NCBI GenBank assembly: GCA_024654535.1
Contig: JANLHL010000016.1
Span: forward strand, 32,626 to 96,625
Origin: Candidatus Roizmanbacteria bacterium
Lineage (GTDB): Bacteria > Patescibacteriota > Microgenomatia > UBA1406
Length of the DNA stretch: 64,000 bases
Direction of reading: 5' to 3'
Shown here: positions 13,965-32,832 of the stretch, piece after piece
How positions within the stretch are numbered: position 1 is the first letter of the stretch
How the letters are laid out: each line of letters opens with the position of its first letter
The notes under the pieces: model-generated
Told to the model about the DNA's origin: nothing
Seen by the model: only the letters and a program-made list of their open reading frames with translations
Database searches by the model: none
Translations under genes and position numbers: made by a program

Positions 13965-14840
13965 ATGCAATTCACAGATACATTCGAAAATAAAAACGAA
14001 ACCAGCTTTGTTACCGTAACGGTAAAGTGGAGCGATATAGACAAATCCAAGGAAGAGACACTACTAAAGATTCAAAAAGATTTTGAATCAGAAGGTTTTA
14101 GAAAAGGGAAAGTGCCGGTAAAAGTAGTGCGTGAGAAGGTTGGTGAAAGCAAGCTCTTAGAAGAAGCATCTCGTTATTTTTTGAGCGATGTCTATTCCCA
14201 AATAATTAAGAAATACGATCTGCACCCTGTTATAGACCCTGCCATTAGGGTAAAACAGGCAGAAGCCAACAAAGACTGGATAGTCATATTTGAAATTGCC
14301 CACGCACCTGCTATAAAAACAATGCCTGATGTAAAAAAAATAGTAGCAGATATTCGTGCACAGGCAAAAAAAGAAACTATTTGGGTACCCGGTAAAGACG
14401 AAAAAGAGAAGACTGCTGAAAAACCTGAAGAGAAGAAAGAAGAGCAATTACAAAAAATTATGGATGCTCTTGTCAATAAAGCTGAGATTACTATAGCACC
14501 AGGAATAATGGAACAAGAGGTTAATAGGCGCATGGCTTCGCTTCTCGACGAGGTAAAAAAACTTGGTATGAACTTAGATCAATACATGCAGGCAAAAGGG
14601 GAAACAACCGATTCTATGAGAAAGAAGGCGGAAAAAGAGATAGTCGAAGTGTATACTGTTGAGCTTTTGCTGCAACAGATAGCAGAGAACGAAAAAATTA
14701 CGATAGACGACAAAGAGCTCGAGGCGATTTTCTCTCGTATGAAAACCGAAAAAGAGCGCGAAGAAGCGAAGAAAAATGCATATTTTTATGCAAGTTTAAT
14801 GAGAAAGCAGAAGACACTTGATTATTTGAGTAGCTTATAG
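13965..14840 (+). CDS. tig: Trigger factor lacking the PPIase (FKBP) domain
   Basis: N-terminal ribosome-binding domain with signature GFRKGKVP; C-terminal chaperone-arm-like helices; K/E-rich linker where the PPIase domain normally sits; TATAAT at 13953-13958. Confidence 0.7.
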   Translation: MQFTDTFENKNETSFVTVTVKWSDIDKSKEETLLKIQKDFESEGFRKGKVPVKVVREKVGESKLLEEASRYFLSDVYSQIIKKYDLHPVIDPAIRVKQAEANKDWIVIFEIAHAPAIKTMPDVKKIVADIRAQAKKETIWVPGKDEKEKTAEKPEEKKEEQLQKIMDALVNKAEITIAPGIMEQEVNRRMASLLDEVKKLGMNLDQYMQAKGETTDSMRKKAEKEIVEVYTVELLLQQIAENEKITIDDKELEAIFSRMKTEKEREEAKKNAYFYASLMRKQKTLDYLSSL

Positions 14841-14852
14841 TAAAATAAGCAC

Positions 14853-15455
14853 ATGGTAGCCGCAAAAAAGAAAACATCAAGCGGCATAGCAGAGCAACTC
14901 AAGAGTCTTGGAAACGATTTTTTCGAGCAAGGAAGAGACGCAGTAAAAGGCGCAAGAAATGACGTTGCTTCGCAGCTCTTGGATGATGATAACTTCGATT
15001 CCCCAGACATCTATGGAGAAAATCCTTTTGCATCTGTGTCGAGTATGGACAAAAAAGATCGTAAAGAGCCTATTCGAGTGATCAAATCTGAAATTCTCTT
15101 TAATAGGCAAGAGGTACAAGAAAAGCAAAGCATACGTCAAGAGTTAAATAGCTTAATAGAAAATGTACGCAGAGAGCTCGAGCTTTTGAAAGTACAAGAC
15201 AAAGGCCTTAGCGAAGATATTTCCAAGCTTGTATTGCAAAACAACCCTGAAAAGCCAGGTATATATCACATTCGATTTTTTCAATTTGTCATAAAATTGC
15301 TTCATGCTCTCAGAAAGCGTATTTCAGAGGGTCGTATGTGGCTTGACGTGGCGTTTGAAAAAAAGAAAAAGAAAAAATTCTGGGGTCTTGCCAAGAAAAA
15401 AGGTACTTCTTTCTCACGCTCAAGTGAGCTTTCACAGTCTAATCTTCCAGGGTAG
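14853..15455 (+). CDS. Hypothetical protein, coiled-coil, Lys-rich C-terminus
   Basis: 200-aa ORF with no competing frame; no recognisable motif. Confidence 0.4.
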   Translation: MVAAKKKTSSGIAEQLKSLGNDFFEQGRDAVKGARNDVASQLLDDDNFDSPDIYGENPFASVSSMDKKDRKEPIRVIKSEILFNRQEVQEKQSIRQELNSLIENVRRELELLKVQDKGLSEDISKLVLQNNPEKPGIYHIRFFQFVIKLLHALRKRISEGRMWLDVAFEKKKKKKFWGLAKKKGTSFSRSSELSQSNLPG

Positions 15456-15495
15456 TCGTCTATAGAAAATTTCCATTTTTTCGCTTGCTCTCCTT

Positions 15496-15504
15496 TGGTA
15501 TAAT
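15496..15504 (+). promoter_or_regulatory. Extended -10 promoter element TGGTATAAT for tRNA-Val
   Basis: Perfect TGnTATAAT 12 nt upstream of the tRNA 5' end; TTGCTC lies 6 nt upstream of the TG, i.e. 9 nt upstream of the -10 hexamer, too close to be a spaced -35. Confidence 0.55.
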
Positions 15505-15515
15505 GGTGCCTATAT

Positions 15516-15589
15516 GGAGCCATAGCTCAGTTGGCTAGAGCGTCGCATTGACATTGCGAAGGTCTGTGGTTCAAGTCCACATGGCTCCA
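15516..15589 (+). tRNA. tRNA-Val (anticodon GAC)
   Basis: Acceptor GGAGCCA/TGGCTCC, D-arm AGCTCAGTTGGCTAGAGC, anticodon loop TT-GAC-AT, T-loop GGTTCAAGTCC; 74 nt. Confidence 0.9.
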
Positions 15590-15626
15590 CATAATTTCTA
15601 TAGTGATAACTTCATCCAAGTAATTA

Positions 15627-16208
15627 ATGGATTTCACCGAACAGATAAACATAAATCACGATGGCTTGGTTGTTACAGATGCTCGATGGCTTGATGGTTT
15701 TAGAGTGCAGGTTGCAGATACGTTTGGGCAGTGTAAGACTGCGAGTGAATTTCTAGTACGCTATAACTATCTCATTCCAGAATTTGATAGGGAAACATCT
15801 ACTGCATACCTAAATTTAAATACGGCCCTACAGACTAAAACAGGCCATTGTCTTACTGCGGCTCTTAGTTTGGGAGAGTGGGGAGTACAAAATGGTATGT
15901 ATGTTAGCTATTTTCCTCGTTCAGTTGTACAGCACGCTGTCGTAGGACTGTCGGAGAAACAAATAATTGTTCCCGACGATTCGTTAGATATGTTGCGGTT
16001 TACCGATTTGTGGCAGAGAAATGCTAGAAAAGGACTCGCCCTGTATGAGCATAAGCAACATATGGTAGGTTTAGATCCATTTCATAGGTTGAACTTTACT
16101 ATGTTAACAAATAGAGAAGATAGATTTGTTAGAGAACCCCCACAGTTATCTTCTCAGGCCTTTTTACAGCGAATGGGGTGGTGGCAGGGAGAACATATGG
16201 CTGAGTAA
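15627..16208 (+). CDS. Hypothetical protein, possible transglutaminase-like/papain-like cysteine peptidase fold
   Basis: 193 aa; spacing KTGHC...(about 34 aa)...QHAVV...(about 13 aa)...PDD resembles the Cys-His-Asp core of transglutaminase-like proteins; assignment tentative. Confidence 0.45.
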   Translation: MDFTEQININHDGLVVTDARWLDGFRVQVADTFGQCKTASEFLVRYNYLIPEFDRETSTAYLNLNTALQTKTGHCLTAALSLGEWGVQNGMYVSYFPRSVVQHAVVGLSEKQIIVPDDSLDMLRFTDLWQRNARKGLALYEHKQHMVGLDPFHRLNFTMLTNREDRFVREPPQLSSQAFLQRMGWWQGEHMAE

Positions 16209-16583
16209 ATTTACATTTGTCAGGCATATAAACAAAGTAAATATTAAAGAAAGGAGCGATTCGCTCTAGGGTCACACAGTTTGTTTCAAGGAAACCTTGA
16301 AAATCTTAAACGGTGCGACAAAATATGGAGAAGGGATATTCGTAGGACTATTTGAATCTATGGATAAAGATGAAAAAAACCTTGAATCTATAGTTCGAAG
16401 ATTAGCAAAAGGGAAATAACATACCTGTCAGTTTTCGAATTCGAAACATAAAACCTGCACAAATTTCTGCTTCAGGGAAGCGCGCATTGGGGTCGGTAAT
16501 AAATGTTTCTGTATCGCAAATCTGTATTTTTTGACAGCCTTAAAGAAATGTGGGGATAGAGACATCGCTCGGATTATGTAGTT

Positions 16584-16967
16584 TCACTGTTTGCTAGAGT
16601 GTTGTTTGTACTTTTCTATTTCTTCTGTGTAAAACTCGTTCCCTGCTAAATAGGCAAGAAGATTGCTGGTTTTTTCTATCGGGTCTTTGTTGAGAAGCGT
16701 GCACAACTTCGCTATTGCAATACGATTTTCTTCGCTGTAGGTATATTCTATTAGCGTACCGTCTGGCATCTTAAATATAAAATAGATTAGGTCAGTTCCG
16801 ACTATGTCATTCCAAAACCCGTTATCGAGCTTTTCACGTATTAGGTTTTTATAAAGCTCAAGTGACCGCTTTGGTACAAAGAGTTTTCTGCTCGTACTGT
16901 CTTTTATATGCTTAACCGTTATGGCAAGTGCGGTCAGCTCGTCGTTGGAAATCTTAAGCGCTCCCAT
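16584..16967 (-). CDS. Hypothetical protein
   Basis: ORF 16584-17033; internal ATG at 16967 (MGALKISNDEL...) more plausible; no recognisable motif. Confidence 0.4.
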   Translation of the reverse strand: MGALKISNDELTALAITVKHIKDSTSRKLFVPKRSLELYKNLIREKLDNGFWNDIVGTDLIYFIFKMPDGTLIEYTYSEENRIAIAKLCTLLNKDPIEKTSNLLAYLAGNEFYTEEIEKYKQHSSKQ

Positions 16968-17034
16968 AAGATAGCTTCTGTAGTTGTGCATATATCTGTA
17001 TATATTTATACAAAATTGAGTGTAGCAATGCAAT

Positions 17035-17063
17035 TTGCATGTATAAGGTTTTGCGTGTATACT
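17035..17063 (+). promoter_or_regulatory. Sigma70-type promoter of the thrS leader (TTGCAT-17 nt-TATACT)
   Basis: TTGCAT 17035-17040, 17-nt spacer, TATACT 17058-17063 preceded by TG; leader ATG lies 7 nt downstream of the -10. Confidence 0.55.
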
Positions 17064-17069
17064 TAGGTC

Positions 17070-17114
17070 ATGTATATGAAAAGCGTTTTTACCACAACTA
17101 CCACCACTATTTAG
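17070..17114 (+). CDS. thrS leader peptide MYMKSVFTTTTTTI (six consecutive Thr codons)
   Basis: ATG TAT ATG AAA AGC GTT TTT ACC ACA ACT ACC ACC ACT ATT TAG read directly; below the ORF-track size cutoff; immediately followed by alternative hairpins. Confidence 0.6.
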   Translation: MYMKSVFTTTTTTI

Positions 17115-17115
17115 T

Positions 17116-17160
17116 GCGGGGTACTTGTGTGTGTATACCCCGCAGATCGCGGGGTTTTTT
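17116..17160 (+). promoter_or_regulatory. Transcription attenuator: antiterminator (17116-17143) overlapping an intrinsic terminator (17138-17160)
   Basis: GCGGGGTA/TACCCCGC 8-bp helix shares CCCCGC with the terminator helix CCCCGC/GCGGGG, which is followed by TTTTTT; 39 nt upstream of the thrS ATG. Confidence 0.65.
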
Positions 17161-17198
17161 AGTACCTAAAAATTATTAATAAGTTATACAATAAACAC

Positions 17199-19004
17199 AT
17201 GAACGACAAAAAAGATTATCTTCACAAACTGCGCCATTCAGCAGAACACGTACTGCATCAGGCGATGAAAGAGCTGTATCCACAAATATTACTTGCCATG
17301 GGCCCTGCTACAGATGATGGATTTTATTTTGATTTTGATAGTAAACCAGAAGGCAAAGAAGCAGTAACCATAACTGAGGCAGATTTTCCCAAAATAGAAA
17401 AGCGTATGCAGGAAATCATAGACCAAAATCTGCCTATTACTCGCCATGAAATAAATGTGATCGAAGCCAAAAAAATGTTTGGTGAGAATCCGTACAAAAT
17501 GGAATGGATAGAGCAAGCCAAAGAGCGAGGAGACGCAATTTCTATCTATTGGACAGGGAAACCAGATGAAAAAGGTTCTATGGTAGATCTCTGCGCAGGG
17601 CCACACGTAGATTCTACTGGCGAGATCAAGGCATTCAAGTTGCTTTCAGTTGCAGGCGCTTATTGGCACGGCGATGAAAAGAATAAAATGCTTACCCGTA
17701 TTTATGGCACGGCTTTTAGTTCCCAAAAAGAGCTTGATGAACACCTGAATCTTCTTGAAGAAGCAAGAAAGAGAGATCACAGAAAACTTGGTAAAGAACT
17801 GGGCCTATTTACTTTTTCAGATATGGTTGGAAAAGGTTTGCCACTCTTTACATCAAAGGGCGCGACGATATGGCGTGAACTTGAACGGTATGTGGTAGAC
17901 GAAGAGATAAAACACGGTTATCAGCATGTTCGCACGCCAAATTTGGCAAAGACCGATCTATATAAAAAATCTGGCCACTATCCATACTATAAAGATACGA
18001 TGTACCCTGCGATGAAGATAGATGAGGAAGAGCTTATTTTGCGTCCCATGACGTGTCCGCACCACTTTGCTCTCTATATGGATAAGCCGAGAAGTTACCG
18101 AGAACTACCAATGCGGCTCGCCGAGATGGCACGGTTGTATCGGTACGAAAAATCTGGAGAGCTTACCGGTCTTATTCGCGTTCGTGAATTTACTTTAGCT
18201 GATGCTCACAACTTTGTGAGAAAAGATCAAGCAGCAGAAGAAGTTGGAAATGTGCTTGATTTAATAGAGAAAATTGCGGGAGTTTTGGGTTTGGAGAAAG
18301 GCAAAGATTACGTGTATCGACTTTCGTTGGGTGATCGTGAAAATAAAGAAAAGTACTATGATTCACCTGAGAATTGGGAGTATGGTGAAAAATTATTACG
18401 CACAGTTTTAGAGGAAAGAAAAGCTCCTTATTACGATGCAAAGGGTGAAGCAGCTTTTTATGGGCCAAAAATAGACGTACAGATGAAAAATGTGTTGGGT
18501 AAGGAAGATACGGCCTTTACTGTACAATATGATTTTTGTTTACCAGAACGATTCGGATTGTCATATAGGAACGAAGAAGGTGAGCAGGAACAACCCATAG
18601 TGATACATCGCTCATCTATTGGGGCACTTGAACGTTCAATGGGTTTCTTGATAGAGCGGTATGCAGGGTTATTTCCATTGTGGCTATCTCCTATTCAAGT
18701 TGGTGTGGTCCCTGTATCCGATCAGGTGAGTGCATATGCGAAGAGCGTCCATGATGCGTTTATCGGCGCTGGTATTCGCTCGGAGTTAAATGTTGAGAAC
18801 AAAACATTGGGTGCAAAAATACGCGACTTTACATTGCAAAAGGTACCATACCTGTGTATAATTGGAGCTAGTGAAGAGAAAAGAGCTAGGGAAGAGGGTA
18901 AAGCCTACGTTTCGGTGCGAACAAGAGAAGGTAAGAATCGAGGAGTAGTTGTATTATCAGAGTTTTTAGCGGAGCTAACAAAACACATTGAGAAGAAAGC
19001 CTAG
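17199..19004 (+). CDS. thrS: Threonine--tRNA ligase (no N-terminal TGS domain)
   Basis: 601 aa; starts at the editing/SAD domain (HSAEHVLHQA, HxxxH), class II catalytic core and C-terminal anticodon-binding domain. Confidence 0.95.
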   Translation: MNDKKDYLHKLRHSAEHVLHQAMKELYPQILLAMGPATDDGFYFDFDSKPEGKEAVTITEADFPKIEKRMQEIIDQNLPITRHEINVIEAKKMFGENPYKMEWIEQAKERGDAISIYWTGKPDEKGSMVDLCAGPHVDSTGEIKAFKLLSVAGAYWHGDEKNKMLTRIYGTAFSSQKELDEHLNLLEEARKRDHRKLGKELGLFTFSDMVGKGLPLFTSKGATIWRELERYVVDEEIKHGYQHVRTPNLAKTDLYKKSGHYPYYKDTMYPAMKIDEEELILRPMTCPHHFALYMDKPRSYRELPMRLAEMARLYRYEKSGELTGLIRVREFTLADAHNFVRKDQAAEEVGNVLDLIEKIAGVLGLEKGKDYVYRLSLGDRENKEKYYDSPENWEYGEKLLRTVLEERKAPYYDAKGEAAFYGPKIDVQMKNVLGKEDTAFTVQYDFCLPERFGLSYRNEEGEQEQPIVIHRSSIGALERSMGFLIERYAGLFPLWLSPIQVGVVPVSDQVSAYAKSVHDAFIGAGIRSELNVENKTLGAKIRDFTLQKVPYLCIIGASEEKRAREEGKAYVSVRTREGKNRGVVVLSEFLAELTKHIEKKA

Positions 19005-19563
19005 TAAAAAGGACTTACGAAAAAGAGCAATACGAACAAACGAGTATATTCCGCATGCAAAGATGCGGGTTTTAGCTGCTGATAATGTACAAATAGGTGT
19101 GTTGACACGTATAGAAGCACTGAACCTTGCGAAAGAGCAGGGTGTAGACTTGGTTGAAGTTGCGCCAAAAGCGGTACCGCCAGTGGCAAAACTGATAGAG
19201 TTTAATAAGTATTTGTATCAGCTTGCAAAGAAAGAAAAGTCGGAATTAAAAGGACGAACGGAGGTAAAAGAGGTTAAGATAGGACTGTTTATGGCAGAGA
19301 ATGACTTGGGGAGGATGGTAGAGAGAGTACAAGACTTTCTCAAAAAGAACCATCAGGTAAAAATAAGCTTGTGGCTCAAAGGTCGCCAGCTCGATAAGAA
19401 GCAAGATGCGCGAGTATTTATGCAGACATTTATACAGCGAGCAAGTTTTGCGAAAATAGTAAGCGAGCCGGTGATGCAAGGAAAAGTAATGCGAGCAGTT
19501 ATAACGTTCGATAAGGACAAAAAAAATGAAAAAGCCCAAAGTAATAAAATTGAGAAAGCTTAA
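18988..19563 (+). CDS. infC: Translation initiation factor IF-3
   Basis: IRTNEYI...VRVL-like N-domain and VDLVEVAPKAVPPVAKLIEFNKYLYQ; ORF-track start is TTG inside the thrS 3' end; true start uncertain (in-frame ATA at 19030 is an alternative, infC commonly uses atypical starts). Confidence 0.85.
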   Translation: MRRKPSKKDLRKRAIRTNEYIPHAKMRVLAADNVQIGVLTRIEALNLAKEQGVDLVEVAPKAVPPVAKLIEFNKYLYQLAKKEKSELKGRTEVKEVKIGLFMAENDLGRMVERVQDFLKKNHQVKISLWLKGRQLDKKQDARVFMQTFIQRASFAKIVSEPVMQGKVMRAVITFDKDKKNEKAQSNKIEKA

Positions 19564-19747
19564 GATTAAGAAATCTGTCAGTAAGCGTTTTAAAGTAACA
19601 CCAACGGGCAAAGTAATGCACCGTAGTCAGAATATACGCCACTTGAGTAGTAATAAGTCTAAAAACCAGCTCAGAAGATTGCGAAAGAAAAAGAGCTTGT
19701 TTTCAACAGATGCAATAAAAATTAAAAAATTATTAGGAGTAGGATGA
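19526..19747 (+). CDS. rpmI: 50S ribosomal protein L35
   Basis: KSVSKRFKVTPTGKVMHRSQNIRHL pattern; position between infC and rplT. Confidence 0.85.
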   Translation: MKKPKVIKLRKLKIKKSVSKRFKVTPTGKVMHRSQNIRHLSSNKSKNQLRRLRKKKSLFSTDAIKIKKLLGVG

Positions 19748-20094
19748 CACGAGTTAAAAGAGGTGTAGTCACACGAAGAAAACATAAAAAACTTTTGGGT
19801 CTTGCAAAAGGTTATGAAATGAGCCGCAGTAGCAGGCTTAGTGTAGCAAAAGAGACCGTGTTGCATGCTGGTGAATACGCATTTGCAGGAAGACGAAAAA
19901 GAAAGGGCGATTTTAGAAGGACATGGATTGTTCGTATCAATGCGGCTCTTCGTGGCATGGATATGACCTATTCTTCCTTTATAGCACTTATGAAGAAAAA
20001 AAACATTGGCCTGGATAGAAAAATTTTGAGCGCATTAGCTCAAAAGGAACAGATTTTCAAAAATGTAGTCGATGCAGTAAAAAAACAAAAATAA
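19744..20094 (+). CDS. rplT: 50S ribosomal protein L20
   Basis: MTRVKRGVVTRRKHKKLLGLAKGY N-terminus; ATGA overlap with rpmI. Confidence 0.95.
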   Translation: MTRVKRGVVTRRKHKKLLGLAKGYEMSRSSRLSVAKETVLHAGEYAFAGRRKRKGDFRRTWIVRINAALRGMDMTYSSFIALMKKKNIGLDRKILSALAQKEQIFKNVVDAVKKQK

Positions 20095-20098
20095 ACTC

Positions 20099-21142
20099 AT
20101 GGATTCACACATACAGTCAAGACTCAACTTGTATGTTCGTTCGCTAGAAAATGCGTCTTCCCTCGAGGATCTTCTGAAAATTCATATAGAAATCTTTGGT
20201 AAAAAAGGATATTTTGCACACCTTTTTCAAACTCTTGCACAAGAGAGCGATATGGAAAAGAAAAAGACTATGGGTGCTTTTTTCAATACAGAGAAACAAA
20301 AACTCGAACATGTTTTCAGTAAAAGACAAGACGAATTTTTACAGACAAAACAAGATGTTGTGGGCGATGTTACCGTGCCTGGTATTGGGCCAAAGTTGGG
20401 CAGTATGCATATTGTTACGAGCGCTATTGAAGAAATACGTCGTATCTATTCGCGTATAGGTTTTTATCAATATTCATATCCAGAAGTTGAGTGGGAATAC
20501 TTTTCATTTGAAGCCCTTAATATGCCTGCCGATCACCCAGCACGTGATGATTTTGAAACTTTTTTTGTCGATGGTCCAGTATCTAAAAAATATGGCAGAA
20601 TGGTACTAACTCCTCATACTTCAAACGGTCAAGTACGTGAGATGTTGCGACTTGGAAAGCCGCCGATACGTATGATTAATATTGCTCGTTGTTATAGGCC
20701 CAATTGGGATGTTACCCACGTGCCGATGATGCATCAGTTCGAGGGTTTATGCGTTGATAAAGGGATATCAATACAACACCTTAAAGGTACGATGAGTTAT
20801 TTCGCACGAGAATTTTTTGGTTACGATGTAAAAACGCGTCTTCGACCCCACAACTTTGAATTTACTGAACCGTCATTTGAGGTTGATATAAGCTGCATTC
20901 ACTGCAATGGGACAGGTATCACAAAGGAAGGCAAATGTCGTATCTGTAAAAGTGGCTGGTTAGAACTGGGTGGTTCTGGCTTAGTCCACCCAAACGTGCT
21001 CAAAGCTGGTGGTATAGATAGCTCTGTCTATAGTGGTTGGGCATTTGGTTTTGGTATTGAGCGTGTTGCTATGATTAAATATCAAATTGACGATATACGT
21101 AAGTTATATAGCGGTGAATTACGCTACGTTTTAGAGAGCTAA
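20099..21142 (+). CDS. pheS: Phenylalanine--tRNA ligase alpha subunit
   Basis: 347 aa; class II motifs (HPARD, FRPHNFEFTEPS, GWAFGFGIERVAM); Cys4 ribbon CIHCNG...CRICKSG in the catalytic domain. Confidence 0.95.
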   Translation: MDSHIQSRLNLYVRSLENASSLEDLLKIHIEIFGKKGYFAHLFQTLAQESDMEKKKTMGAFFNTEKQKLEHVFSKRQDEFLQTKQDVVGDVTVPGIGPKLGSMHIVTSAIEEIRRIYSRIGFYQYSYPEVEWEYFSFEALNMPADHPARDDFETFFVDGPVSKKYGRMVLTPHTSNGQVREMLRLGKPPIRMINIARCYRPNWDVTHVPMMHQFEGLCVDKGISIQHLKGTMSYFAREFFGYDVKTRLRPHNFEFTEPSFEVDISCIHCNGTGITKEGKCRICKSGWLELGGSGLVHPNVLKAGGIDSSVYSGWAFGFGIERVAMIKYQIDDIRKLYSGELRYVLES

Positions 21143-21143
21143 C

Positions 21144-23129
21144 ATGAATATACTATTACCATACTCGAGCATTAAGAAACGCCTGACTACAGATACCACC
21201 GTTGAAGAATTTCAACGTTTTCTTTCGTTGTGTGGCCCTTCAATAGAGCGTATTGAAAAGATAGGTAATGACTACGTCATGGATATCGAAGTGACTACAA
21301 ATCGCATCGATATGGCGTGTGTGGCAGGAATAGTACAAGAAGCAAACGCAATTCTGCCACTTTTTGATAAAAAGGTTTCTGTATCAGAAAATTTACTGAC
21401 CGATTATTCATTGTCTCAACTTAATTTTCCAAAAGAGGATTTGTTACACGTCATCAATGACTTTTCGTTGAGCCCTCGTATTACCGCGGTGGTATTTGAA
21501 AATATTATTTTGCAAGAATCTTCAGAAGAAATACGGACATTTTTAGAAAAGGTAGGTGTTCGACCAATAAATAACGTTGTTGATATATCGAATTATCTTA
21601 TGTATTTGTTCGGTCAACCGGTCCATATATTTGATTACGATAAAATTGGTGGTGGAATTATCAAATTACGAAAAAGCAAAAAAGGTGAAAAAATTGAGCT
21701 TTTGGATGAAAAAACCTACACATTGCCTGGTAACGATATAGTTATAGAAGATGGGAATGGCAAACTCATCGATCTTTGTGGCATTATGGGAGGTAAGGTA
21801 AGCGAGGTAGACGAGCACACAAAGCGTATAGTGCTTTTTGTTCCCTCGTACAGTAAGAAATATATTCGAAAAACATCTATGCTGACAGCTGCGCGCAGCA
21901 CTGCTTCTTCATACTATGAGAAGGGGATAGACACAGCACGTGTTGAACCTACCTTTACGTACGGTGTGAAATTGCTTACAGAGCACGCGCAGGCTCACAT
22001 GTCATCGCGCTTGGTAGATGTTCATGAGGGGCTGTATACGCCTCGATCAATTTCAGTTACTGCGCAGTATATTATAGATACGATTGGTGAATCAGTCGAT
22101 GAACACGTCGTAGAAAATATATTGTCTTCACTTGGATTTGGTGTTACGAAAAGTGGAAAGTCAATACAGGTGACGGTGCCATTTTGGCGTCAGTTTGACG
22201 TTTTTGAACCGCACGATATTGTTGAAGAAGTAGCACGTATATATGGTTATCATACGATTAATGAGGTCATGTCTCCGTTTTCTCTCGTGCGTGATGAAAA
22301 AATACGTGAGTTTGAAGAATCGTACAGAGCAGAAACAGCGGTAAAAACATACCTTTGTAATACAGGTTTCATAGAAATGTATAACTACTCTATGGAGTCT
22401 TTGGAAATGCTCGGTTACTTTTCATCTGATCCGAAATGCCATTTGCGTATATCAAACCCAATATCTGAAGATCTTGTCTATATGCGGCAGTCAATTATCC
22501 CGTCGCTTTATAAAAATATGCTTGATAATACTCAGTTTGAACACTTGTCACTTTTTGAAATAGCAAACATATATATACCGCGCGCAGCAGATTTACCCAA
22601 TGAAGTACGCACACTTGGCATACTTGTTCAAGATTCACTATCTTCATTAAAAATGACACTACAGAATTGCGTTACACAACTTAATACCTCTATAGAATAT
22701 AAAAAAGGGTCCCTTGACTACGCAACAAACGAATGTATAGAGCTTTATAGCAATGGTACTTTTGTAGGGTACGCCGGTCGATTGTTACCGGCACTTGAAC
22801 AAAGAATAGGAAAAAAATTGGTATTTGCTGAGTTGAAGTGGGACGCACTAGTAACGAGAACTCGCGCAAAACAAACTTTATTAAAGAAAAAACCACAATA
22901 CGTTATCGAAGATATTACCTATACATACAAAGCTGGTTTAGAATGGTTTGAGCTTACTTCTAATGTGCAAAAGAAATTTTCGGAAATACAGAGAATAGAG
23001 TATAGGGATGAGTACAAAGATAATATTACAATGAGGCTCTATACACTACCAGAAAAAGGACAATCGATTGTAAAGAAATGTGTGGAATATATGCGAAATG
23101 AACTTGGAATTGTGGTAAAGGCGAAATAA
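21144..23129 (+). CDS. pheT: Phenylalanine--tRNA ligase beta subunit (no N-terminal OB-fold tRNA-binding domain)
   Basis: 661 aa; B3/4, B5, FDX-ACB-like arrangement; directly follows pheS. Confidence 0.9.
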   Translation: MNILLPYSSIKKRLTTDTTVEEFQRFLSLCGPSIERIEKIGNDYVMDIEVTTNRIDMACVAGIVQEANAILPLFDKKVSVSENLLTDYSLSQLNFPKEDLLHVINDFSLSPRITAVVFENIILQESSEEIRTFLEKVGVRPINNVVDISNYLMYLFGQPVHIFDYDKIGGGIIKLRKSKKGEKIELLDEKTYTLPGNDIVIEDGNGKLIDLCGIMGGKVSEVDEHTKRIVLFVPSYSKKYIRKTSMLTAARSTASSYYEKGIDTARVEPTFTYGVKLLTEHAQAHMSSRLVDVHEGLYTPRSISVTAQYIIDTIGESVDEHVVENILSSLGFGVTKSGKSIQVTVPFWRQFDVFEPHDIVEEVARIYGYHTINEVMSPFSLVRDEKIREFEESYRAETAVKTYLCNTGFIEMYNYSMESLEMLGYFSSDPKCHLRISNPISEDLVYMRQSIIPSLYKNMLDNTQFEHLSLFEIANIYIPRAADLPNEVRTLGILVQDSLSSLKMTLQNCVTQLNTSIEYKKGSLDYATNECIELYSNGTFVGYAGRLLPALEQRIGKKLVFAELKWDALVTRTRAKQTLLKKKPQYVIEDITYTYKAGLEWFELTSNVQKKFSEIQRIEYRDEYKDNITMRLYTLPEKGQSIVKKCVEYMRNELGIVVKAK

Positions 23130-23675
23130 TTACACTCGATAGAAATACGTTTTGAAGTTTCCTTCTCTAATAGTATGCCAGCATTTGTTGTTCCAGTTTT
23201 TTATTTTAAACCCGTGTGAGATGATGAGAGTATTTTTTTTACACTCAGTGAGTAATTTAGCAGAGAGTTGTGCAACTATTTCAGGATAAAGAAAAAAATA
23301 AATAACGGTTGCCTGTTTGAGATCCGTAGCATATATATCTTCATGAATAAACTCTGATTTATTTGGAGGCTCAAAGTATTTTTTTCGAAATAGACAAAAG
23401 GTATACAAAAGCTTATTAAGCTCTACACCAATGCATCGCGCTTGTGAATGCTGAGCAACAAAAAAAACAACATTACCATTACCACTGCCCAAATCGTAGA
23501 AAATGTCAGTCGAGCTGAGTGGTATAGAGGAAAAAATTCGTGTTAAATCTTTCCTTCTCGTTGGTACGAAGGGAACTCCTATTTGCTGAGAAATAAAAAG
23601 CGCTAAGAAAAAGAGGATAAAAAATACGAGGATAATTGTTAACAGGAAAAGAGCGATAATACTAGAGATTTCCAT
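23130..23675 (-). CDS. Membrane-anchored class I SAM-dependent methyltransferase
   Basis: 181 aa; N-terminal TM; motif I DLGSGNGNVVFFVA. Confidence 0.65.
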   Translation of the reverse strand: MEISSIIALFLLTIILVFFILFFLALFISQQIGVPFVPTRRKDLTRIFSSIPLSSTDIFYDLGSGNGNVVFFVAQHSQARCIGVELNKLLYTFCLFRKKYFEPPNKSEFIHEDIYATDLKQATVIYFFLYPEIVAQLSAKLLTECKKNTLIISHGFKIKNWNNKCWHTIREGNFKTYFYRV

Positions 23676-23763
23676 TGTGTGAATAATTATATGTACTTTT
23701 CTTTATTATTTGTTGTACTGCTATTCTATACATTTTATGTACAAGTGGTATAAAATTGTATCA

Positions 23764-25098
23764 ATGGATATTGAGAGAATAGCTGAGGAGTTTAAAAATA
23801 AGAATATTGTATTAGTCGGATTGGGGTTGCAGGGTGGTGCCGTTGGCGTTGCAAAATTTTTATCTCGTTTTGTATCTCTCTGTACTGTTACCGATTTGAG
23901 AAAAGAGACGGAACTTCGCCCATCAATAGATGCGCTACAATACTTTAAAAATATACAGTTTGAGTTAGGCGAGCATAGACCTTCAACTTTTTTATCTGCT
24001 GATTGTATAGTGATTGGTCCGTCTGTGCGCTTAGATATGCCACAGTTGGTGAGCGCACGAGAAAAAGGTATCCCCATAGTAAGCGAGATGGAACTTTTTT
24101 TTAAATACAATTCGCGACCTGTTATCGGTGTTACTGGAACTCGTGGGAAGACCACCACAACGACACTTATATACGAAATGCTCAAAATGGACAAGAGAAA
24201 TGTTCTTCTCGGTGGAAATATCCCAGGTAGCTCTACTTTGTCTCTTTTGGAAAAAGAGTGCGATTTGGTTTTGCTGGAACTATCCTCGTGGCAATTGTCC
24301 GGGTTGCATAGAATAGGTATAAGTCCGCATATAGCTGTATTCACCAATTTCTTTCCTGATCACCTTAATTTTTACTCTTCTATGGATGATTATTTGTTCG
24401 ATAAACAGGCAATCTATACTTTTCAGAACGACAAAGACCACCTTGTCGTAAATAAATCGCTGCAAAAAATTATTGAAAAAAATATGCCACGATCACGCGT
24501 TCATTATTTTACTCAAAACACGTATACCAAAAAAATTGCATTACTAGGTGATCATAATCGAGAAAATGTCTCTGCAGCTTTTACCGTTGGAGAAATTTTG
24601 GGCGTTTCGCCACAAGCACTTTCAGTATTAAGCACATTCAAAGGCGTATCTTTTCGGCTTGAGAATATCGAAACGATTAATGGCGTAGATATATACAACG
24701 ATACAACCTCTACGACACCTATCGCAGGCATACGGGCTCTTGAAGCAATCCACGATCGTTACAAGCGGATAATACTTATCACAGGGGGTAACAGTAAGGG
24801 CTTACCCGTTGAGGAGTGGTTGGGAACCGTACAGTCGTTTGCAACAAGAGTGGTATGCATGGAGGGAACGTTTACTGATAGTATTTTGCCAAGGCTTGAT
24901 AAAAGTAAGTTATTGGCTTTAATTCCTATGAGTAATTTAAAGTCAATACTTTCGCTTGCGATGAAGTATTCGCAACCGGGAGATGCTATTCTATTTTCAC
25001 CATCTGCTACTTCATTCGCTATGTTTAAAAATGAATTCGATAGGGGAGAGCAATTTAATAAAATTGTAGAGGAGTATAGTAAGCAGTACGATAAATAG
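23764..25098 (+). CDS. murD: UDP-N-acetylmuramoylalanine--D-glutamate ligase
   Basis: Rossmann N-domain VLVGLGLQGGAVG, P-loop GVTGTRGKTTTT; ATG 23764 preferred, preceded by TGGTATAAA (23746-23754). Confidence 0.85.
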   Translation: MDIERIAEEFKNKNIVLVGLGLQGGAVGVAKFLSRFVSLCTVTDLRKETELRPSIDALQYFKNIQFELGEHRPSTFLSADCIVIGPSVRLDMPQLVSAREKGIPIVSEMELFFKYNSRPVIGVTGTRGKTTTTTLIYEMLKMDKRNVLLGGNIPGSSTLSLLEKECDLVLLELSSWQLSGLHRIGISPHIAVFTNFFPDHLNFYSSMDDYLFDKQAIYTFQNDKDHLVVNKSLQKIIEKNMPRSRVHYFTQNTYTKKIALLGDHNRENVSAAFTVGEILGVSPQALSVLSTFKGVSFRLENIETINGVDIYNDTTSTTPIAGIRALEAIHDRYKRIILITGGNSKGLPVEEWLGTVQSFATRVVCMEGTFTDSILPRLDKSKLLALIPMSNLKSILSLAMKYSQPGDAILFSPSATSFAMFKNEFDRGEQFNKIVEEYSKQYDK

Positions 25099-31998: not shown

Positions 31999-32832
31999 AT
32001 GGAAGCTAATGACGTTAGTGTAAATCTACAGATAAAAAAGTGTATAAACTTACTTAAAATTATCTTAAAGGATGATTTGCTCGGTTTTTATTTGTATGGT
32101 TCTTTACTTTTCGGCGGACTTCAAAAATATAGCGATATAGATTTATTTGCTATTTCAAAGAGAGAAGCTACCAGGAGTGAAAAAGCACAATTAGAAAAAA
32201 CTTTACTGAATATTTCAGGAATTTACGCAGTAAGTAAAGACCAGAAACCAATCGAACTTACGGTTGTTGTTCGATCTGATATTTACCCTTGGCAATATCC
32301 GCCTAAATTTGATTTTCTCTATGGAGATTGGCTTCGTGGTGAATTTGAAGCTGGAAATATAGAACCTTGGCACTCTAAAGTTTTGCCTAATCTTGCTTTA
32401 GTAATAACCCAGCTTTTGCTTTCAAACAGAGTATTATTTGGCCCAAGTCCAAATCAACTTCTTGCGGCTGTTCCATACAAAGATTTTTTTATTGCAACTA
32501 CCTCAGAAATTGATAGCTTGATGGCAGATCTTAACAACGATACTCGCAATGTCTTATTAACACTTGCAAGGATATGGTATACAGTTGAAACAGATACAAT
32601 AGCTTCTAAGTCTACAGCTGCAGCGTGGGCAATTGATAAATTAACTGATAAATACAAGCCTCTGATGCAGAGAGCTCGAGCTATTTATTTAGGAATAGAA
32701 CAAGAGCACTGGGGCGATATGTCAACGCAGCTGCAACCGTGTGCAGATTATATTGTGAAGAAAATCAGAGAACAAACGTCGCACTTAAATACTTATGATT
32801 ATCAAAACAGAACTATCTCGTTGGCCAAATAA
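31999..32832 (+). CDS. aadA: Aminoglycoside nucleotidyltransferase, ANT(3'')/AadA family
   Basis: 277 aa; NTase motif YLYGSLLFGGLQKYSDIDLF; C-terminal NVLLTLARIWYTVETDTIASKSTAAAWA...ARAIYLG closely parallels AadA (NVVLTLSRIWYSAVTGKIAPKDVAADWA). Confidence 0.8.
   Translation: MEANDVSVNLQIKKCINLLKIILKDDLLGFYLYGSLLFGGLQKYSDIDLFAISKREATRSEKAQLEKTLLNISGIYAVSKDQKPIELTVVVRSDIYPWQYPPKFDFLYGDWLRGEFEAGNIEPWHSKVLPNLALVITQLLLSNRVLFGPSPNQLLAAVPYKDFFIATTSEIDSLMADLNNDTRNVLLTLARIWYTVETDTIASKSTAAAWAIDKLTDKYKPLMQRARAIYLGIEQEHWGDMSTQLQPCADYIVKKIREQTSHLNTYDYQNRTISLAK

Follow-up and report, generated by a model that had tools for sequence, protein, structure and literature searches.

The stretch of DNA analysed here (the window, 64 kb in length, GC content ~38%) originates from an uncultivated Microgenomates bacterium of the candidate phyla radiation (CPR, also Patescibacteria). 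It carries thrS, the gene of a threonine-tRNA ligase (ThrRS), whose nearest homologues are found in Microgenomates-group CPR bacteria, e.g. Roizmanbacteria and Woesebacteria. Directly upstream of thrS lies a compact element which is very probably a ribosome-mediated leader-peptide attenuator of this gene that senses charged tRNA-Thr. The parts of the element, together with the gene that it precedes, are the following:

17034-17063, plus strand: leader promoter P1, with the -35 box TTGCAT (17035-17040), a 17-nt spacer and the -10 box TATACT (17058-17063)
17070-17114, plus strand: leader open reading frame (ORF) MYMKSVFTTTTTTI, 14 codons, read directly from the sequence
17091-17108, plus strand: region 1, six consecutive Thr codons (ACC ACA ACT ACC ACC ACT), the proposed stalling site
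17113-17133, plus strand: region 2, with the core GCGGGGTA (17116-17123) and a GU-rich tail (17124-17133)
17136-17143, plus strand: region 3, TACCCCGC, the 3' arm of the antiterminator and also the 5' arm of the terminator
17149-17160, plus strand: region 4, GCGGGGT (17149-17155) with the T6 tract (17155-17160), from the terminator scan and folding
17187-17192, plus strand: candidate second promoter P2, a TACAAT -10-like box 6 nt 5' of the thrS ATG
17199-19004, plus strand: thrS, threonine-tRNA ligase, 601 aa (TIGR00418, 623 bits vs a cutoff of 383.65)

The original prediction, which was made from the sequence alone, had placed a promoter, a mini-ORF with six Thr codons, two overlapping hairpins and a T6 tract in front of thrS, and all of these parts were found again at the same positions. 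In the promoter scan, P1 appears as TTTGCA (17034-17039) and TATACT with a spacing of 18 nt (9 of 12 matches). The leader ATG (17070) is situated 6 nt 3' of the -10 box and the stop codon occupies 17112-17114. The run of six ACN triplets occurs only once in the 64-kb window, both strands considered, and in none of 100 dinucleotide-preserving shuffles. The core of region 2 pairs with region 3, the GCGGGG of this core starting 1 nt 3' of the stop codon. The terminator stem is formed by ACCCCGC (17137-17143) and GCGGGGT (17149-17155), with 7 pairs of which 6 are G-C, and this terminator ranks top in a scan of 14000-24000; its T-tract is separated from the thrS ATG (17199) by 38 nt. For P2, no recognisable -35 box was found in the window. 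A role of the element as the terminator of an upstream gene is ruled out, the neighbouring ORF (16584-16991) being a divergent, minus-strand one, the 5' end of which faces the element. Between the leader and the start of this divergent gene (ATG at 16991, minus strand) there is a perfect inverted repeat, ATGCAA-T-TTGCAT (17028-17040). Its halves could serve two divergent leaderless promoters as -35 boxes placed back to back, or they could form the binding site of a dimeric regulator. A scan of the window for further attenuator-like leaders returned just ORFs with a weaker single-residue enrichment (4/7), which were judged to be noise.

Folding gave -13.7 kcal/mol for the terminator (3:4), -12.9 kcal/mol for the antiterminator (2:3) and -15.1 kcal/mol for a further, 1:2 hairpin, in which the Thr codons (17090-17108) pair with 17113-17133, GU-rich stretch included, and the stop codon is located at the loop. 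The original prediction had overlooked this hairpin. With the predicted 1:2 pairing, all four segments of a classical attenuator are represented in the element. The leader was also folded with a ribosome placed on it, the masked bases being the A-site codon and the 12 nt that follow; this is an equilibrium sketch of a choice that would in reality be kinetic. With the A site on any of the Thr codons 2 to 5, the minimum-energy structure is the antiterminator, while with the ribosome on Thr6, on the Ile codon, on the stop codon, or absent, it is the terminator. The masked folding thus reproduces the predicted switch.

The relatives were surveyed in 160 thrS loci from species-representative genomes and metagenomes, which gave 122 distinct upstream regions from Patescibacteria. 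A terminator-like hairpin (dG <= -7 kcal/mol and a U-tract, within 300 nt of thrS) is present in 58 of the 122, and in 29 of those 58 a short ORF with at least three Thr in seven residues ends at most 70 nt before the terminator. With loci L041 and L086, which were added by eye, a short Thr-rich ORF adjoins the terminator in 31 of the 122 regions, i.e. about a quarter, and a terminator is present in all the leader-bearing relatives. At the 58 terminators upstream of thrS, a run of at least three Thr is found in 26 and of at least four Thr in 21, while a run of at least four of any of the 19 other amino acids is found in none. Among the terminator-like sites elsewhere in the same loci, which served as controls, a Thr run of at least three occurs at 9 of 1190 (0.8%); some of these nine could mark further Thr-regulated genes.

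The leaders of this family contain 3-7 tandem Thr codons, and the leader subfamilies have a common architecture with little sequence in common. The leader of L081, where ThrRS is 90% identical to that of the window, ends in MFENQIFITTTTTI; that of L086 (66% identity) reads MYEKSVFTTTTTTI and has a synonymous ACT-to-ACG change within the Thr run; relatives at 69% ThrRS identity have the leaders MFSPTICITIKTTFR or MFSHLVCTTITTAFR with the same GCGGGG/CCCCGC stems. In L086 (2060-2494), an inserted ORF of ~90 aa (MKEVFHGTTENNAINIV...) separates the near-identical Thr leader and terminator from thrS, an arrangement in which the attenuator would control the inserted ORF as well as thrS. The choice of Thr codons in the leaders is biased. 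Across 29 leader-bearing loci, ACC and ACT make up 74% of the leader Thr codons and ACG 4%, compared with 51% and 24% in the corresponding thrS ORFs; in the window, ACC is the rarest Thr codon of the genes (16%), yet it accounts for three of the six leader Thr codons. This bias suggests either the sensing of a single isoacceptor, tRNA-Thr(GGU), or a constraint imposed by pairing with the GU-rich region 2.

In each locus the segment after the stop codon repeats the 3' arm of the terminator, and the arms vary by subfamily (GCGGGG, GGAGGG, GGGAGG, GGGGCG, AGAGG). Each region 2 prefers the region 3 of its own locus, with duplex energies that add up to -376 kcal/mol vs -289 +/- 12 kcal/mol when the partners are permuted across loci (0 of 10,000 permutations). 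Covariation was counted in a MAFFT alignment of 21 leaders, for which RNAalifold, unguided, returned the 2:3 helix as the consensus structure. In this helix 83.9% of the cells are paired, vs 69.2 +/- 2.2% in shuffled alignments (0 of 500) and 43-60% in controls with a slid register; the covariation score is 0.350 vs 0.133 in the shuffles (0 of 500), and both sides have changed in 6 of the 9 pairs. The conservation in relatives that the original prediction had named as a check is thus found, both as a Thr mini-ORF that is kept and as an antiterminator helix that co-varies. The geometry around the stop codon is likewise conserved. Measured from the end of this codon, region 2 starts at -16 to +2 nt in 29 of 29 loci, and the terminator ends 40-58 nt 3' of the stop. 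From the position of region 2 it follows that a terminating ribosome always masks it.

The leaders of the relatives are preceded by promoters equivalent to P1, many of them with a perfect TTGACA -35 box. The best promoter of each locus was picked with no regard to ORFs. In 22 of 23 loci, the first start codon at a distance of 6-10 nt 3' of its -10 box shares the frame of the Thr run (p ~5e-10 vs a chance of 1/3). Because an in-frame start is present at leaderless distance in nearly all of these loci, both the translation of the leader and its leaderless start, which had been suspected from the short distance between -10 box and ATG, are supported; the leader ORF is probably translated from a leaderless transcript that starts at or near ATG 17070. 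The other genes of the window are in line with this. A GGAG, GAGG or AGGA motif is found upstream in just 1 of the 37 long ORFs, and strict -10 boxes are most frequent at a distance of exactly 6 nt 5' of the ATG, an offset shared by 6 of the 37 genes. Examples are 17058-17070 and 17187-17199, as well as the starts of genes at 31999, 40611 (minus strand), 43097 and 44979 (minus strand). The genome looks largely leaderless, without Shine-Dalgarno sequences.

We propose the following mechanism. Transcription would start at or beside the A of ATG 17070, and a ribosome would load on the leaderless 5' end and translate MYMKSVFTTTTTTI. When Thr-tRNA is plentiful, the ribosome would reach the stop codon (17112-17114) and cover the GCGGGG core of region 2; with region 2 covered, regions 3 and 4 would pair and transcription would terminate at the T-tract, at ~17160, yielding a transcript of ~90 nt. 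When Thr-tRNA is scarce, for example if ThrRS activity is too low, the ribosome would stall on the early or middle Thr codons, leaving region 2 free to pair with region 3. The terminator would then be blocked, and the polymerase would enter thrS and probably continue into infC-rpmI-rplT-pheST. In the case of no translation, region 1 would pair with region 2 and the terminator would form. The net effect would be a homeostatic feedback on the synthetase, following the same logic as in E. coli pheM-pheST and in T-boxes. Attenuation by stalling on the Thr codons, the central claim of the original prediction, is supported by the Thr-specific mini-ORFs in 31 of the 122 regions, by the covariation, by the stop-codon geometry, by the in-frame start codon at leaderless distance from the promoter and by the masked folding.

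Several observations weigh against this mechanism or limit its reach. The 1:2 pairing in the window is no better than that of a shuffled GU-rich segment (z = -0.5), and across the family it is a trend only (mean z = -1.2, per-locus shuffles). The antiterminator and the terminator are nearly equal in energy, therefore the decision between them must be kinetic. In the MAFFT alignment the subfamilies are 1-3 columns out of register at the terminator and 1:2 helices; these two helices were tested per locus, by folding and shuffles, and the cross-locus permutation was used in place of covariation counts. Since the loci are phylogenetically related, the 31 leader-bearing ones falling into ~12 blocks on a neighbour-joining tree of ThrRS, the p-values overstate independence. 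thrS has no Shine-Dalgarno sequence, so its translation from a read-through transcript needs internal initiation that is independent of such a sequence; judging by the single gene of the 37 with a Shine-Dalgarno-like motif, initiation of this kind seems to be usual here. Finally, a strict -10 box is present 5-8 nt before the thrS ATG in 13 of the 29 leader-bearing loci and in 22 of 93 other loci, the background being 0-1 per offset. Part of the thrS transcription may thus bypass the attenuator through TACAAT (17187-17192), which would dilute the control. Against such a bypass, this box is without a -35 partner in the window; in the group of L001, L084 and L121 the T-tract ends ~17 nt before the thrS ATG, and because this distance leaves no room for a full separate promoter, thrS must depend on read-through in these loci.

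The -10-like box 6 nt before the thrS ATG, together with the enrichment of such boxes across loci, also fits an independent small transcription unit, that is, a small RNA of ~90 nt or the gene of a Thr-rich micropeptide, with thrS transcribed from its own leaderless TACAAT promoter and no regulation in cis. In Sinorhizobium, attenuator RNAs that have been released, as well as leader peptides, can have functions in trans (PMC6614838, PMC7298713). Such a unit, however, leaves unexplained the link to thrS and the specificity for Thr codons, the co-varying alternative helix that overlaps the terminator, the stop codon locked to region 2 and the presence of T-boxes at the same position in sister lineages; moreover, P2 is devoid of a -35 box in the window, and the L001 group could not accommodate a full promoter. 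We regard this explanation as improbable. A known small RNA is ruled out at the site, as no Rfam family scored above noise in 16900-17300 at E <= 10: the matches (GcvB at 18.7 bits, istR, SNORA4 and Hrs1) were noise only, driven by the terminator hairpin.

That ThrRS itself, or another trans-acting factor, binds the hairpins in an operator-like manner, the ACN run being merely their pairing partner in the RNA, is very improbable. Region 2 does consist of NGU triplets (UGU, GGU), which are similar to Thr anticodons and are located in the loop of the antiterminator, and the autoregulation of E. coli ThrRS by mimicry of the anticodon arm is established (mentioned in PMC2965389). Yet the NGU repeats follow automatically from the complementarity to ACN codons, the in-frame start at leaderless distance (22 of 23 loci) and the fixed stop (29 of 29) point to translation, and there is no hairpin at the thrS start codon. 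The segment between the T-tract and thrS (17161-17198) is AT-rich, without a Shine-Dalgarno sequence or a stable hairpin at the start codon, and hairpins resembling anticodon arms that would flank the ribosome-binding site, as in the E. coli operator, were not found in it. A T-box, or some other riboswitch with a metabolite or uncharged tRNA-Thr as its ligand, would have precedent in relatives which do carry T-box or T-box-like thrS leaders. Here this reading appears effectively refuted and retains a negligible probability: the Rfam scan described above gave nothing above noise, with no match to the T-box (RF00230) or to Thr_leader (RF00506) models in 16900-17300 at E <= 10, the T-box motif GGNUGGNACC is absent from the window leader, and the transcript from 17070 to 17160 would be ~90 nt long, under half the length of a T-box. 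An extension of the attenuator model, quite improbable in our estimate, is that the element is a dual-input switch, in which stalling is combined with the binding of ThrRS to the NGU repeats, or that the abundant terminated leader RNA or the Thr-rich peptide acts in trans. The repeats could, according to the folding model, be displayed in the antiterminator loop (17124-17135) like Thr anticodons. If true, leader-peptide attenuation and E. coli-style operator mimicry would be united in one 90-nt RNA.

The thrS loci of the relatives make use of more than one type of leader. The T-box-like leader of L033 (2735-2920), the one whose alignment was read, scores 71.6 bits (E = 7e-16, under the Rfam gathering score of 93), and its specifier position shows GAAU-ACC-A, ACC being a Thr codon. 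The T-box of L060 (2683-2940) scores 37 bits, also under the gathering cutoff, and L100 (~2360-2420) has the T-box-like motif GGATGGAACC without an Rfam T-box match even at E <= 1. The Rfam T-box model seems to under-call the T-boxes of CPR bacteria. On the neighbour-joining tree of ThrRS, the 31 loci with a Thr leader are interleaved with 12 T-box-like loci (recognised by the GGNUGGNACC motif) and 58 loci with neither. In addition, 21 loci (e.g. L012, L043, L059, L130 and L131) have a good terminator with neither a Thr-rich ORF nor a T-box motif by the criteria used, and these may have diverged versions of either sensor or a third sensor type. Two different sensors of tRNA-Thr charging thus occupy the same position before thrS in sister lineages. 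The same pattern was described for hisS in Firmicutes (PMC2965389).

Classical leader-peptide attenuation is known for the trp, his, thr and leu operons and for pheST. A close parallel to the element of the window is E. coli pheM-pheST, where a leader of 14 residues with a high content of the cognate amino acid is also followed by a terminator and an antiterminator before a synthetase gene, where the charging of the synthetase's own tRNA is also sensed homeostatically, and where the gene neighbourhood (thrS-infC-rpmI-rplT-pheST) is the same. In contrast to pheM-pheST, the window element controls thrS, resides in a CPR host, shows no sequence homology and has a leader that is apparently translated from a leaderless mRNA instead of a Shine-Dalgarno site. 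E. coli thrL (Rfam Thr_leader) likewise combines a Thr-rich leader peptide with a 1:2/2:3/3:4 architecture; it differs in regulating the biosynthesis genes thrABC and in sensing Ile as well, and no homology to it was detectable, RF00506 being among the models without a match in the scanned interval. The thrS T-boxes of Bacillus and L033 share the position, the terminator/antiterminator output and the tRNA-Thr charging signal with the window leader; unlike it, a T-box is an RNA of ~200 nt that itself detects uncharged tRNA, with no translating ribosome. The E. coli thrS operator also exerts feedback on thrS through its 5' region, by the binding of a protein beside the Shine-Dalgarno sequence that controls translation initiation, whereas the window has a terminator, no Shine-Dalgarno sequence and no hairpin at the start codon.

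Attenuators of synthetase genes have been described for leuS and trpS in Streptomyces (PMC1262725) and for paralogues of hisS in Bacillus (PMC2965389), and an RNA-seq study of S. lividans proposed the leaderless leaders leuL2-leuS, trpL2-trpS, alaL-alaS and thrL-thrS (PMC8079986). The statement in the original prediction that a Thr leader on thrS had not been described was therefore too strong, as thrL-thrS of S. lividans was proposed in that study. The likeness to the Streptomyces synthetase leaders includes the lack of a 5' UTR (untranslated region) before the ORF and the cognate codons before the matching synthetase gene. The S. lividans thrL has two Thr codons only and no clear U-tract terminator, and is based on RNA-seq alone (PMC8079986). 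Unlike it, the family of the window combines 3-7 tandem Thr codons with a canonical terminator and an antiterminator that co-varies, and is present in many genomes of a different phylum. Our literature searches on thrS leader peptides and on attenuation or leaderless translation in CPR bacteria yielded S. lividans thrL only, plus general papers on attenuators; within the searchable literature, no report of leader-peptide attenuation in CPR/Patescibacteria was found.

The genes 3' of thrS are infC-rpmI-rplT-pheS-pheT, as identified by the same profile search. The N-terminal TGS domain was not detected in the 601-residue ThrRS of the window, and the homologues of this protein list PF03129, PF00587 and PF07973 only. 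A strong promoter-like site, TTGCAA-17-TATAAT (18834-18862, 10 of 12 matches), is located inside the 3' end of thrS just 5' of infC and is similar to the infC promoters that lie within E. coli thrS. The infC ORF as listed has TTG as its first codon, in an overlap with the end of thrS (18988-19004), on account of which the true start codon of infC is uncertain. For PheT (21144-23129, 661 aa), the match to the bacterial profile (798 positions) is confined to positions 158-751, and the protein appears to be devoid of the N-terminal part.

The element represents a new family of a textbook mechanism and not a new mechanism, so that known biology is extended, not overturned. As a Thr-leader attenuator of thrS it is well supported and spans multiple genomes, the sole earlier thrS case found, that of Streptomyces, being weak. 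For annotation, the leaders constitute a class of ORFs of 10-25 codons that is overlooked by gene callers. Since close lineages have a T-box in some cases and a leader peptide in others before this gene, thrS of these bacteria is a useful system for studying how one sensor is replaced by another. A conserved attenuator in CPR bacteria would imply that transcription and translation are coupled tightly enough for the ribosome to control RNA polymerase, and that this takes place on leaderless mRNAs.

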